Positions 10,573 to 21,380 are shown, counted from the stretch's first letter. The stretch: DNA of 60,701 nucleotides from Promethearchaeati archaeon (GCA_013166775.1 JABLTJ010000018.1:1-60701), one strand, 5' to 3'. Made by a program: numbers and translations. Notes: generated from the sequence alone by a model not told the origin.

Positions 10573-11178
10573 CTGAGACCATGTCAATTCTGTTCAAAAG
10601 ATATACCTGAAGTAAGTGTTTTTTGTCCATATTGTGGAAAACAAGTGCATGATGAGCAAGAAGTAATAGAGGAAGTCGAAGAGGAAATGGAAGAGAAAGC
10701 AACAATTTCTGATAAAATCGGAAACGGTTTGCAAAGAACAATTAAGAATTTCCGAAAGCAATTTACATCATTTTTAGGTAATTTAGAAGAACAAGTTCAG
10801 AATTCAAACTCTCTCTCTTATGTTAATAAAGATAAAGTAGCAAATGCACTAAATAAATTCAAAGGGAAAATAAGTGTAAAAACAAACGAGAGTAAAGTTA
10901 ACGAAATTCAAGAATGGGCTAAATTTGTTGATGAAGCTATTTCCGGTGATAAATGTATTATCTGTTTGCAGCCATTTGAAATAGAAAAGAAAGAAAAAAT
11001 TGATGTAATCCTATGTCCAAATTGCAGCTATGCTGGACATCCAGATCATTTTATAAAATGGCTAAAAAAGAAATCTTCATGCCCAATGTGTAGAGAAAAA
11101 TTAAGCAAATCGACTCTTGAACATGGCTTTTTAGAAAACAAGAATAACGAATTAGTTTTTAGCTCTTCTTTGCATTAA
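10573..11178 (+). CDS. Zn-ribbon + RING-finger protein (putative E3 ligase), probable CTG start
   Basis: Open frame upstream of 10645 encodes RPCQFC..FCPYCG; C-terminal CIIC..CPNC..HPDH..W..CPMC; GGTGA 5 nt before CTG. Confidence 0.75.
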   Translation: MRPCQFCSKDIPEVSVFCPYCGKQVHDEQEVIEEVEEEMEEKATISDKIGNGLQRTIKNFRKQFTSFLGNLEEQVQNSNSLSYVNKDKVANALNKFKGKISVKTNESKVNEIQEWAKFVDEAISGDKCIICLQPFEIEKKEKIDVILCPNCSYAGHPDHFIKWLKKKSSCPMCREKLSKSTLEHGFLENKNNELVFSSSLH

Positions 11179-11186
11179 GCTGCAAA
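11169..11186. promoter_or_regulatory. Palindromic operator candidate upstream of pyrB
   Basis: tttgca-ttaagc-tgcaaa; same motif at 21208 and 21363. Confidence 0.55.
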
Positions 11187-11253
11187 TTTTCTAAGGCTAT
11201 ACGATATCTTTTTTAACTACACAAATAAATCTTGTTTAAAACTTTGATTTATT

Positions 11254-12171
11254 ATGAGACCAAAACATTTGTTCTCTGTAAGAGATATATCCAAAGAAGA
11301 TATGGAAGGGATTTTTCATTTAGCATTATCTATCGAAAACAATCCAAAGGATTTTGCGAAGATTTGTGAGGGCAAAATACTAGCTACACTTTTCTTTGAA
11401 CCAAGTACAAGAACTAAGTTATCATTTGAAAGTGCAATGTTACGATTAGGAGGTCAAATTTTAGGTTTTTCTAGTGCTAAGGTTAGTAGTGCAGCTAAAG
11501 ATGAAAGTATAGCAGATACTATCAGAATGATCAATTCTTATGCACACATAGCTGTTATTCGTCATTTCATAGAAGGTATCGGAGAGATAGCTCAGAAATT
11601 TGCAACTATTCCCATTTTGTCAGGAGGAACAGGAACCCAAGAACATCCCACTCAAGCATTACTTGATATGTACACAATTCAAAAAGAATTTAAGAAAATT
11701 GAGAATCTAAATATTGGAGTGATGGGTGATTTGTTATATGGACGAACAATTCCTTCATTATTGTATTCTTTAACCAAATATGACAATGTTAATGTACATT
11801 TAATATCCCCACCTGCATTAAGAATCAGAAAGAATGTCGAATTACGACTTCAAGACGCAGGTTTTAATTATCAAATGACTGAGAATCTTAAAGATGTTAT
11901 AGATGAGTTAGATGTTTTATATGTTACCAGGATCCAGAAAGAAAGATTTCCTGATCCCACTGATTATGAACGATTAAAGGGTGCATATCATATAAAACCT
12001 GAAGATATGCATAATGCTAAGGATAATCTCATTATTCTACACCCTCTTCCTAGAGTTGGAGAAATTGACTATAAAATCGATGAGCACAAATCATCAAGAT
12101 ATTTCCAACAAGCTCAAAATGGAGTTTGGGTAAGAATGGCTTTAATTCTAAAATTTTTGGATTTGGGTTAA
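11254..12171 (+). CDS. pyrB: Aspartate carbamoyltransferase catalytic subunit
   Basis: FFEPSTRT, HPTQAL, TRIQKER, HPLPR. Confidence 0.97.
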   Translation: MRPKHLFSVRDISKEDMEGIFHLALSIENNPKDFAKICEGKILATLFFEPSTRTKLSFESAMLRLGGQILGFSSAKVSSAAKDESIADTIRMINSYAHIAVIRHFIEGIGEIAQKFATIPILSGGTGTQEHPTQALLDMYTIQKEFKKIENLNIGVMGDLLYGRTIPSLLYSLTKYDNVNVHLISPPALRIRKNVELRLQDAGFNYQMTENLKDVIDELDVLYVTRIQKERFPDPTDYERLKGAYHIKPEDMHNAKDNLIILHPLPRVGEIDYKIDEHKSSRYFQQAQNGVWVRMALILKFLDLG

Positions 12172-12172
12172 A

Positions 12173-12643
12173 ATGAAAGACGAAAATGATAAGTTAATCG
12201 TAAGAAAAATTCAAGAAGGAACAGTTATTGATAGAATTCCTCCAGGTAAAGCTTTGAAAGTTCTGGAAGTTTTAGGCGTTGATGCCAATTATCCTTATGC
12301 AGTTGCACTTGCTATGAGAGTACCCTCAAGAAAAATATCTTTGAAAGATTTTGTAAAAATCAAAGGTAAAGCTTTAACTGAACAAGAGATTCAGAAACTT
12401 TCTTTTATTGCTCCAACAGCTACTGTAAACATAATCGAAGATTTCAATGTGAAGGAAAAAGTTTTACTCCAGATTCCTAACCATGTTGAAGAGTTCATTG
12501 ATTGCTTGAATCCAAATTGTGTTTCAAACACACGCGAACCTATTGTCTCATCTTTTGACATTGTATCAAAAGATCCTCTCATTCTAAGATGTACATACTG
12601 CGATAGGATTATTGAACAACAATATCTTACAAGGAAATTGTAA
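12173..12643 (+). CDS. pyrI: Aspartate carbamoyltransferase regulatory subunit
   Basis: IQEGTVIDRI, APTATVNII, CLNPNC..CTYC. Confidence 0.95.
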   Translation: MKDENDKLIVRKIQEGTVIDRIPPGKALKVLEVLGVDANYPYAVALAMRVPSRKISLKDFVKIKGKALTEQEIQKLSFIAPTATVNIIEDFNVKEKVLLQIPNHVEEFIDCLNPNCVSNTREPIVSSFDIVSKDPLILRCTYCDRIIEQQYLTRKL

Positions 12644-12672
12644 GATCATTTTTTCATTAATGGTTTTTTATT

Positions 12673-19543: not shown

Positions 19544-20226
19544 TTTAATTCCTCGATAAGATTCTCAAAAATAATTCTTCCATCTTCAGATCCTAAATAC
19601 TGAAAACTTGCACGTTCTGGATGTGGCATCATCCCCAAAACATTACCTTTCGCATTAATAATTCCAGCTATGTTCTCAATTGAACCATTTGGGTTGTCTT
19701 CTAGAGAGATTTCCCCATCATCTTTACAATATTTAAAAGCAATTTGATTCTTATTTGCGAGTTTTGTTATTTCCTCGTTTGCATCATAATACCTTCCTTC
19801 AAAGTGAGCTATAGGAATTCTCAAAATCCTGTTAGCCATCCCTTTAAGAAGAGGAGAACTAGTTACTCTGGTTTTAATACTAACCCATTTACTGATGAAT
19901 TTGGTTGAAGTATTTGTAGAGAGTACACCTGGAAGCAGAGAAGTTTCACAAAGCATCTGAAAACCATTACAGATTCCAATAACGAATCTCTCAGAATTAG
20001 CGTAATCATGAAGATTTTCTATTATAGGAGTTTGAACGGCTATAATTCCAGGACGAAGATAATCACCATACGAGAATCCACCAGCCAAAATCAGAGCGTC
20101 CATATCATCCATTTTTTTAACATCATTTGGATAAATCAGTTCATTTTTTATCCCTAAACTCTTCAAAACTCTTTTTACATCCAATTCGTTGTTTGTTCCT
20201 GGGAATTTGGTTATGCCTACTTGCAT
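19537..20226 (-). CDS. purQ: FGAM synthase glutaminase subunit
   Basis: FPGTN, GGFSYGDYLR, GICNGFQ, MMPHPER. Confidence 0.96.
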   Translation of the reverse strand: MQVGITKFPGTNNELDVKRVLKSLGIKNELIYPNDVKKMDDMDALILAGGFSYGDYLRPGIIAVQTPIIENLHDYANSERFVIGICNGFQMLCETSLLPGVLSTNTSTKFISKWVSIKTRVTSSPLLKGMANRILRIPIAHFEGRYYDANEEITKLANKNQIAFKYCKDDGEISLEDNPNGSIENIAGIINAKGNVLGMMPHPERASFQYLGSEDGRIIFENLIEELKC

Positions 20227-20227
20227 A

Positions 20228-21196
20228 TTATTCACCAGAAGAAAAATCGAAGGTATAATTCTCTATGAGAGGATTAGACAGAATTGAATCACTTATTTCT
20301 TTTATAATTTCTTGAAGATTTGGTGATGGCGTAAGAGAAAAGGATATTTTTGCACTCTTACCTAATCTTACTTCTTCAACACCTTGATATCCCTTTCTTT
20401 TAAGAGATCTTAGCGTCACCTCTCCTGCAGGATCAAGAACTGATTTCTTTAATTCAATTGTTATTTCCGCTGTAGATTTGATAGAAATCTCAGGATATGA
20501 TTCAATCTCTTCCAATCTTTGGAGAACATCTTTGTAATGATCGATTACTCCACCTAAGTCTTTGCGATATCGATCCTTATCTTTAATTTCACCTGTATCT
20601 ATCTCCCATAATCTCATAGTATCTGCAGATATTTCATCTGCGATTATCAATACTCCCTCATCTGTACTCCCAAATTCGAGTTTGAAATCAACGAGTTTCA
20701 GAGAGATTCTCTCAAAAATTGCTGAAAGAACTTGGTTGACAGCTCTGGTTGTAGATTCCATCAAAGTAGATTCTGCTTTTGTTATCCAACCTAACTGAAT
20801 AGCAATTTCCTTTGCTACTAATGGATCATGTAGGTCATCATCTTTCAAAAAAAACTCAATAATTGGAGTCTCAAATTCTATTCCGTTATCAACTCCATAT
20901 CTCTTACAAAAACTTCCAGCAGTAACATTTCTACACACTACTTCAACTGGTTTAATTTCAACATTTTTACAAATCATTTCTATATCATTTAATTGTGATA
21001 GATAATGAGTAGCAAATCCATACCTATTCAACAGCTCAAACAAGATTACAGAAGTTTTACAATTTATTCTTCCTTTCTCATTTAATTCTTCCTTTTTTAC
21101 TCCATCAAAAGCTGAAATTGAATCTCGAAAAGTTATCCTCACATTATTATCCTCTAAAAGAGTCACATCTTTTGCTTTACCAGAATACACAACCAA
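20228..21196 (-). CDS. purC: SAICAR synthetase fused to C-terminal PurS
   Basis: YSGKAK, DFKLEFG, ADEISADTMRLW, DKDRYR; C-terminal LKKSVLDPAG..VRLGK..LSNPLIENY is PurS-like; TTG start after AAGGTG. Confidence 0.92.
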   Translation of the reverse strand: MVVYSGKAKDVTLLEDNNVRITFRDSISAFDGVKKEELNEKGRINCKTSVILFELLNRYGFATHYLSQLNDIEMICKNVEIKPVEVVCRNVTAGSFCKRYGVDNGIEFETPIIEFFLKDDDLHDPLVAKEIAIQLGWITKAESTLMESTTRAVNQVLSAIFERISLKLVDFKLEFGSTDEGVLIIADEISADTMRLWEIDTGEIKDKDRYRKDLGGVIDHYKDVLQRLEEIESYPEISIKSTAEITIELKKSVLDPAGEVTLRSLKRKGYQGVEEVRLGKSAKISFSLTPSPNLQEIIKEISDSILSNPLIENYTFDFSSGE

Positions 21197-21207
21197 GATT
21201 AGCACCT

Positions 21208-21225
21208 TTTACAGCAATTTGCAAA
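21208..21225. promoter_or_regulatory. Operator candidate in purC leader
   Basis: tttaca-gcaatt-tgcaaa. Confidence 0.55.
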
Positions 21226-21362
21226 CTGTAAGCGTCCTTTTTCTGCGTGGGATTAAAACTAGCTTTAATAAATCTTACTACTTTAGATTTTATAGAATAC
21301 AAAAATCAGTGCAAAAGATTGTTTTACAAAGTGATTTAACGATTTTTGGAAACATATGTGAA

Positions 21363-21380
21363 TTTGCATTATATTGCAAA
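21363..21380. promoter_or_regulatory. Operator candidate upstream of the HTH-PRTase gene
   Basis: (aa)tttgca-ttatat-tgcaaa(tt), 8-bp perfect arms. Confidence 0.55.

Follow-up and report, generated by a model that had tools for sequence, protein, structure and literature searches.

The 60,701-nucleotide stretch of DNA analysed here (GCA_013166775.1, JABLTJ010000018.1:1-60701; below, the window) is one contig (C44) of a 3.85-Mb assembly of a Promethearchaeati archaeon that has 33% G+C and 115 contigs, and close homologs of the window's proteins carry the names Candidatus Heimdallarchaeota or Heimdallarchaeaceae. A nucleotide-synthesis gene cluster, delimited by Pfam and NCBIfam matches and a map of open reading frames (ORFs), spans 19 kb of the window, and three copies of an inverted repeat, TTTRCA-N6-TGCAAA (hereafter the dyad), lie upstream of purine and pyrimidine genes within it. 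Next to two of these copies is the gene for a 258-amino-acid protein, P0001, in which a putative helix-turn-helix (HTH) is joined to a phosphoribosyltransferase (PRT) fold. We argue below that the dyads are probably the operators of a nucleotide-synthesis regulon that is conserved in one genus of the Heimdallarchaeaceae, and that the protein that binds them is most likely the adjacent P0001.

The first dyad, TTTGCA-TTAAGC-TGCAAA, is found at 11169-11186 upstream of pyrBI, where it overlaps the stop codon of a RING-finger (zf-RING_2) gene (10645-11178, plus strand) that ends within it. The other two lie in the spacer between the divergent purCS and P0001 genes: site A (21208-21225, TTTACA-GCAATT-TGCAAA) follows the purC promoter and precedes the Shine-Dalgarno sequence and start codon of that gene, and site B (21363-21380, TTTGCA-TTATAT-TGCAAA) is a perfect dyad that the purine operon shares with the regulator-purP-purP-guaA-pyrE unit. 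An earlier reading of this DNA made from its sequence alone (the sequence-only reading) had listed these three dyads, and they are present as it stated; the expectation from 100 dinucleotide shuffles is 0.05 per window, and no shuffle reached the observed count.

On the plus strand, pyrB (11254-12171; TIGR00670, 357 bits versus a cut-off of 237) and pyrI (12173-12643), both assigned by Pfam, encode aspartate carbamoyltransferase. The purine operon occupies 12673-21205 of the minus strand, where Pfam recognises purCS, purQ, purL, purE, purM, purN, purF and, as the last gene, purD (12673-13926); its ORFs overlap or are tightly packed. The purCS gene (20228-21205, minus strand) is a fusion, a 325-amino-acid ORF with SAICAR synthetase at residues 6-230 and PurS at residues 246-320; both parts score above their NCBIfam cut-offs, and the same fusion is found in related genomes as well as in a genome from another family of the order (G025). 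PurL (910 bits) and PurC (201 bits), together with PyrB, PurS and the GuaB encoded on another contig (C16), all exceed the curated NCBIfam cut-offs. In the other direction the P0001 gene (21458-22234, plus strand) is followed on the same strand, after a gap of 15 nt, by purP (22250-23332), a purP paralog (23459-24454), guaA (24469-25977) and pyrE (25913-26593 as the ORF is listed), all four assigned by Pfam and NCBIfam; the five genes, to 26593, are probably co-transcribed. The tandem purP paralogs, which are separated by 126 nt, are of the formate-dependent FAICAR synthetase type (DUF1246 plus DUF1297). A pyrD-pyrK-pyrC-pyrF unit lies on the minus strand. DNA of the window occurs in three DNA sequencing runs, all from marine sediment and from a single study, and in none of the listed RNA runs.

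Frequency and conservation of the dyads

In the whole 3.85-Mb genome the pattern TTTRCA-N6-TGYAAA has seven matches, where our own base-composition estimate gives about four, and three of the seven are those at pyrBI and in the purCS-regulator spacer. A symmetrised position weight matrix (PWM) of 24 nt, built from 37 distinct orthologous sites, gives site B the highest score in the genome (26.3) and the pyrBI dyad a score of 18.7. Compared with second-order Markov genomes as background, the real genome has five PWM hits versus 2-4 at scores of at least 17.5, and 15 versus 10-27 at scores of at least 14. The four strict matches outside the cluster (contigs C19, C98, C100 and C102) are in coding DNA or beside unrelated genes, namely those for an alpha/beta hydrolase, a formate/nitrite transporter, a helicase and a small ORF, and we treated them as background. 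Likewise rejected, as a chance occurrence, was a site scoring 15.4 that lies 60 nt upstream of a HIT-domain gene (C51) and is kept only in the two closest relatives, and other intergenic PWM hits, near genes for a methyltransferase, a TPP enzyme, an epimerase, an esterase and a Staygreen protein, have no link to nucleotides. A site on contig C78, 337 nt before an ABC ATPase gene, scores 18.6, which is within random expectation, and that gene has an ortholog in only one other genome of the genus.

A genome-wide count equal to random expectation, together with several equally good PWM hits in coding DNA or near unrelated genes, is what one would see if the dyads had arisen by chance or from the base composition of AT-rich intergenic DNA, or else were a general promoter element. 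However, across 10 to 17 diverged genomes the half-sites recur at a constant distance from the genes concerned, whereas spacers and flanks change, and seven copies in the genome are too few for a general element, so that we find this explanation scarcely credible. What stands above chance is the placement of the dyads at the promoters of nucleotide genes and their conservation at the same places in relatives. Both frequency and conservation had been proposed as tests of the sequence-only reading: the motif's frequency is that of background, and its conservation at the same promoters holds.

We searched 40 related genomes, and an ortholog of the regulator was found in 22 of the 24 that are congeneric. 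In 14 of 23 congeneric genomes the regulator gene is divergent from purCS, and the spacer between them carries two dyads whose half-sites are kept and whose 6-nt spacers and flanks differ. An ortholog of pyrB was found in ten genomes of the genus, and each of them carries a dyad at -84 to -92 of that gene. The proposal that purine and pyrimidine promoters have the dyad in common is thus upheld, in that purCS-QLEMNFD and pyrBI have a conserved cis-element. A PWM scan of the window's own genome adds a site scoring 13.7 that lies 57 nt before guaB, on contig C16; of 17 congeneric guaB promoters, most have a site in the corresponding position, which scores 11-19 in thirteen of them, and guaB is a fourth conserved target. 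By comparative genomics, then, the predicted targets are the purCS-Q-L-E-M-N-F-D operon, with two sites that bracket its core promoter, pyrBI and guaB.

Of the further targets that had been forecast for a genome-wide scan, guaB was recovered; the PWM scan finds no site in the regions upstream of purA, purB and carB, nor in those of pyrG and the pyrD operon. The half-site reported before pyrD (30473) does exist, but it is not part of a dyad (best PWM score -1.2) and is not conserved in relatives. In other genera of the order that have 30% homologs, no common dyad was found at the regulator, pyrB or guaB.

Three further features of these upstream regions and targets deserve mention. An AGTAAAACTTTTCAAG element, unrelated to the dyad, is conserved about 25-40 nt upstream of pyrD in all compared genomes (window ~30470-30500; loci L140-L144), and it may serve the pyrD-K-C-F operon as a leader or as its control element. 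The region upstream of guaB is filled, in a different genus of the order (L088, L090, L092), by long runs of ATACAATAC-like short repeats. Finally, in four relatives (G007:C47, G010:C97, G012:C59 and G013:C135; L096-L098, L104) the matches to GuaB residues 12-313 and 311-485 are separated by about 1.35 kb; both parts lie in one open frame of 937-941 amino acids in G007, G010 and G012, and they are on different contigs in G013. This suggests that the IMP (inosine monophosphate) dehydrogenase of those relatives has an insertion of about 450 amino acids, possibly an intein.

At this locus several congeneric genomes (L134, which is G001:C15:409000-423000, and L140-L142 and L144) are without three blocks, pyrBI, purCS-to-purD and purP-purP-guaA-pyrE. 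G001 has none of the three there, its RING-finger gene being followed by pyrF, the regulator gene and pyrC-pyrK-pyrD; the RING-finger gene retains its position beside the cluster even in such genomes. With one query, purCS was not found in G001, G005, G008, G012 and G024 (87-89% complete), and neither was a pyrB ortholog; the deletion genomes look like purine auxotrophs that retain part of the pyrimidine pathway. Most genomes in which purC was not detected keep the guaB site. That site is present in G001, G008, G010 and G012, four genomes in which no pyrB ortholog was found, and in three of these purCS was sought and not found. The pattern in the deletion genomes indicates that regulator and motif persist together when the purine operon is gone.

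Promoter geometry and the nature of the site

The distances between dyads and core promoters are strikingly regular. At pyrB, a putative T-rich TATA box, TTTTTTAAC (11209-11217, plus strand), recognised by its sequence and position only, lies 22-23 nt downstream of the dyad, and in pyrB orthologs the distance from the end of the dyad to a conserved TTTATAAC/T box is 22 nt in seven genomes and 32 nt in two. The gap from the end of the guaB dyad to a conserved TTTTAA box downstream measures 23 nt in eleven promoters and 33 nt in five, the sole other length being 21 nt, beside a degenerate site; a tree of guaB coding sequences requires at least three changes between the 23 and 33 states. Such repeated, exact 10-bp steps argue for a constraint that keeps the site on one side of the double helix with respect to the core promoter, and the same-face spacing at pyrB and guaB points to a stereospecific contact with the basal factors TBP and TFB. 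A conserved GTAAACAA box lies 5 nt upstream of the TATA-like box of guaB in all genomes of the genus (for example L096, L080 and L081; upstream of 84599 on G000:C16); the dyad is further upstream, and the box may be a TFB recognition element (BRE) or the site of a second factor.

The arrangement at purC is of another kind. A putative TATA box, TTTATTAA (21265-21272, minus strand), is conserved in 13 of 14 orthologous spacers with flanks that vary, and in 13 of the 14 genomes it or a close variant is exactly 39 nt upstream of site A, the sequence between them again varying. A conserved CGCAG is found near the expected transcript start. With the start deduced from the position of the TATA box, site A would occupy about +17 to +34 of the purC transcript, with a GGTG/GGGG ribosome-binding site immediately after it and then the start codon. 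Site B is 90 nt upstream of the same TATA box in the window, and in 12 of the 14 genomes this distance is 88-90 nt (ten genomes) or 80 nt (two). Sites A and B are 135-137 nt apart in ten genomes and 127 nt apart in two, and their centres lie about 155 bp from each other.

By the sequence-only reading, the P0001 protein would also control its own gene through site B. This has become doubtful. Site B is 77 nt upstream of the regulator ATG in the window, and it tracks the TATA box of purC, not that ATG; helical phasing between site B and the regulator's own promoter was looked for, and the distances are inconsistent. An AACAAAAATATA-type box lies 22-25 nt before the regulator ATG and is conserved, including in genomes without the dyad (window 21420-21457; L009-L026), which suggests that the regulator mRNA is leaderless. 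Since no dyad is found before the regulator gene in genomes where purC was not detected, site B looks like part of the control region of purC and not like an autoregulatory site.

Could the palindrome work as RNA? Site A lies within the inferred 5' untranslated region (UTR) of purC directly before the Shine-Dalgarno sequence, and its A-for-G change would leave a G-U pair in purC-sense RNA, both of which would suit a hairpin beside the ribosome-binding site, perhaps bound by the PRT protein in the way Bacillus PyrR binds pyr leader RNA. Among 54 distinct sites, however, 62 departures from the consensus dyad are one-sided and one is compensated, which argues that the dyad is a DNA site and not an RNA hairpin; the pattern is that expected of a symmetric, protein-binding DNA site. 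In addition, the pyrB and guaB sites are upstream of the putative TATA boxes and hence outside the mRNA, the purC leader folds no better than shuffled sequences (hairpin z -0.75), and no Rfam family is matched in 10900-31000. We therefore consider a role as RNA very improbable, and return to the dyads as DNA operators.

The candidate regulator and its family

P0001 appears to have an XRE-like helix-turn-helix at about residues 1-75, and the remainder is a type I PRT domain with a loop, VLIVDDIIRTGNT, of the kind that binds phosphoribosyl pyrophosphate (PRPP). Pfam detects PF00156 alone in the whole protein. The best NCBIfam model is NF006328 (PRK08558, 'adenine phosphoribosyltransferase'), which P0001 matches over profile positions 5-237 of 238 at 148.4 bits, below the cut-off of 184. 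It is likewise below the cut-offs of the PurR model (TIGR01743, 60.5 bits versus 258.7, residues 121-220 only), the GfcR model (NF045507, 29.9 bits versus 300) and the adenine phosphoribosyltransferase (APRT) enzyme model (TIGR01090, 39.3 bits versus 185.85), though the fold is common to P0001 and this enzyme. The best match of P0001 in the PDB by sequence is Bacillus subtilis PurR, with an ungapped alignment of 96 residues (127-222 to PurR 128-223) that includes the PRPP loop, so that VLIVDDIIRTGNT aligns with PurR VLIIDDFMKAGGT. In family alignments, loop residues D202, D203, G208 and T210 are conserved, D203 and G208 being invariant.

The AlphaFold model of P0001 has a predicted local distance difference test score (pLDDT) of 93.8, and in a structure search its PRT domain matches APRT and xanthine phosphoribosyltransferase (XPRT) at Z ~21; PurR (1P4A/1O57) is the only match that covers the model from its first residue to its last (Z 19; range 1-258, with about 196 residues aligned). 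The top 50 fold matches of the N-terminal part are mostly DNA-binding domains of the XRE, Cro, POU, CUT or lambda-repressor type, and within it the segment LSRY-x-x-G-x-x-LP (R51, Y52, G55, P59), a putative recognition helix, is invariant or nearly so. PurR is missing from the list of N-terminal fold matches, though little follows from this by itself, and a Foldseek search with the N-terminal model gave no significant match. We think that P0001 is probably a PurR-like sensor domain joined to a different, XRE-type DNA-binding domain, and our reading of sequence and model together is that it would work like PurR while standing outside the PurR family. The likeness to PurR that had been proposed for this protein therefore survives in the PRT domain, its PRPP loop and the best PDB match, but not in the N-terminus, which looks XRE-like, nor in membership of TIGR01743.

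Searching with a profile built on the Heimdall proteins yields 4561 representatives at E <= 0.001; at the stricter limit of E <= 1e-30 there are at least 130 clusters, and most of those listed are 230-260 amino acids in length, with matches that cover nearly all of it. Sampled or retrieved members come from Nitrososphaerota, Bathyarchaeia/Bathyarchaeota, Thermoproteota/Brockarchaeota, Odinarchaeota, Njordarchaeales and Thermococcus lineages, and are annotated as phosphoribosyltransferase, adenine phosphoribosyltransferase or HTH domain protein. When 80 loci from species genomes were compared, purine or pyrimidine genes lay within 7 kb only at the ten Heimdall loci, and the family as a whole may do other things. 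Outside the genus, G025 has an HTH-PRT paralog divergent from purCS-purQ, followed by pyrE, with a dyad GTTGTA-N6-TGCAAC in the spacer; this arrangement implies that the link between regulator, purC and a TTGYA-N6-TRCAA dyad reaches beyond the genus. G025 carries three to four HTH-PRT paralogs (L226-L228), and at another of them (L228) a TTTTCA-N6-TGCAAA dyad lies 55 nt before the start.

The dyads might be real operators and yet be bound by another transcription factor encoded elsewhere, with the HTH-PRT protein serving as an enzyme or as a regulator of something else. This would fit the retention of the protein in genomes that yielded no purC and have no dyad before the regulator gene, the fact that most family members in other archaea are not beside purine or pyrimidine genes, and the enzyme name carried by the nearest NCBIfam model, although nothing was found to back the adenine phosphoribosyltransferase label of NF006328. 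Against it, Pfam and NCBIfam annotation of the cluster and its surroundings revealed no second candidate for the regulator, a purine repressor is the top PDB sequence match of P0001, the divergent regulator and purCS with a related dyad recur in G025, and a twofold site suits a dimeric protein. On balance we regard a different binding factor as improbable, and P0001 as a well-motivated candidate within a cis-regulatory system that is itself real and conserved.

Several observations nevertheless weigh against the conclusion that the dyads are the operators of a regulon governed by P0001. By PWM and Markov simulations over 3.85 Mb, the dyad is not over-represented in the genome, its count being at background. 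The pairing of protein and site draws on adjacency, homology and co-occurrence in one genus, and co-occurrence does not discriminate because every genome in the genus has both. The N-terminal 95 residues of P0001 (model pLDDT 85) have weak fold matches, the best at Z 6.5 to 2o38, of the XRE family, where values below 8 are weak; with residues 1-100 as query at E <= 10, no Pfam HTH family matches, and neither does PuR_N (PF09182). In other archaea, 70 members of the family have no purine or pyrimidine gene within 7 kb. Genomes without a detected purC keep the regulator gene and its proximal promoter with no dyad upstream of the gene, and, as regards self-control, the distance from site B to the regulator ATG varies from 32 to 108 nt among orthologs. 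Finally, the positions of the sites at the different promoters fit no single simple mode of action.

Possible modes of action and relation to known regulators

Type I PRTs are dimers, and a dimer of P0001 would most likely bind the dyad such that the XRE-like helix-turn-helix of each subunit reads one TTTGCA half-site, while the PurR-like PRT domain with its PRPP loop would sense PRPP or a nucleotide. The position of site A, just past the inferred transcript start and before the ribosome-binding site, implies repression of the purine operon when site A is occupied, possibly together with site B about 155 bp away. Archaeal activators such as Tgr/TrmBL1, SurR and Ptr2 usually sit upstream of the core promoter, as the pyrB and guaB dyads do. 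The phase-locked sites at these two genes may therefore be activating.

Two modes of action can be set against these placements. Uniform repression with PRPP as inducer, as in B. subtilis PurR (PMC8789054), is the simpler model physiologically, and we favour it tentatively over the others, at somewhat less than even odds. Dual action, as both activator and repressor, we find possible but somewhat doubtful, and the remaining probability falls to other modes. In the specific form of dual action that we considered, and think unlikely, P0001 would be a position-dependent regulator that balances the nucleotide pools: loaded with a signal of purine sufficiency, it would switch off de novo IMP synthesis at purC from site A, and possibly site B, and the same protein, at sites 22/23 or 32/33 bp upstream of TATA, would recruit TBP/TFB to pyrBI and guaB. 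If true, such a circuit would be the transcriptional counterpart of the activation of aspartate carbamoyltransferase by ATP, and it would be among the first activator/repressor circuits to be defined in an Asgard archaeon.

Among known systems the closest is PurR of the Firmicutes, which in B. subtilis is a PRPP-responsive, PRT-type purine repressor that is released by PRPP and whose operator consists of two PurBoxes, each of 14 bp with a CGAA core, separated by 16-17 bp (PMC8789054). Like Firmicutes PurR (TIGR01743; PDB 1O57, 1P4A, 7RMW), P0001 appears to fuse a DNA-binding domain to a non-catalytic-looking PRT fold with a PRPP loop, its gene adjoins a purine operon, and two operator elements lie near the pur promoter. 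Unlike PurR, it appears to have an XRE/lambda-repressor-like N-terminus in place of the PuR_N winged helix, the putative operator is a single 18-bp dyad, and the promoters are of the archaeal TATA/TFB type. The PurBox pattern itself has 11 matches, with 9.3 expected, and none of them is in the pyrB or purC/regulator spacers. The PurR of Lactococcus lactis is reportedly an activator form that acts from upstream of the core promoter. It is of the PRT type and its upstream site resembles the phase-locked placement at pyrB and guaB; it differs from P0001 in the same respects as the B. subtilis protein, and activation here is a possibility suggested by position only.

In archaea, GfcR of Haloferax volcanii is a transcription factor with an HTH and a PRT fold that was once annotated PyrE1 and whose DNA binding was seen by electrophoretic mobility shift assay; it is PyrE-like, activates sugar catabolism and binds sugar phosphates (PMC10838023). 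Unlike the gfcR gene, that of P0001 sits among nucleotide genes. Within the NF006328 family, which P0001 matches at full length but below the curated cut-off, only the Heimdall members are beside purine or pyrimidine genes. The logic of a joint purine and pyrimidine regulon is known from Escherichia coli PurR, of the LacI family, where one repressor acts through a 16-bp palindromic operator on the purine genes, guaBA and several pyrimidine genes; that logic is alike, but the E. coli repressor belongs to an unrelated family, responds to hypoxanthine and guanine as corepressors, and is bacterial. In Thermococcales, Tgr/TrmBL1 and SurR activate from sites upstream of BRE/TATA and repress from sites downstream of TATA. 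These two classes of placement match those found here, whereas the families and regulons are unrelated, so that the comparison is one of analogy only. A search of the available literature found no description of the present system, nor of any archaeal PRT-type purine regulator other than GfcR. It differs from the known PRT-fold regulators in the probable type of its DNA-binding domain, the 18-bp dyad, the 10-bp-stepped spacing to an archaeal promoter and the target set of pur genes, pyrBI and guaB.

To our knowledge, no metabolic transcription factor of Asgard archaea has yet been matched to its operator by experiment, and the system described here offers a fully specified and cheap test, with one 258-amino-acid protein, four short DNA sites and a few candidate ligands. 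If our reading is true, the 10-bp-stepped spacing from the TATA box would give a handle on the contacts that archaeal regulators make with TBP and TFB. The use of the PRT fold as a sensor, as in PurR of the Firmicutes and GfcR of the haloarchaea, would then extend to the control of nucleotide synthesis on a eukaryote-like basal transcription machinery, and a widespread archaeal family that is annotated as adenine phosphoribosyltransferase would include DNA-binding regulators.

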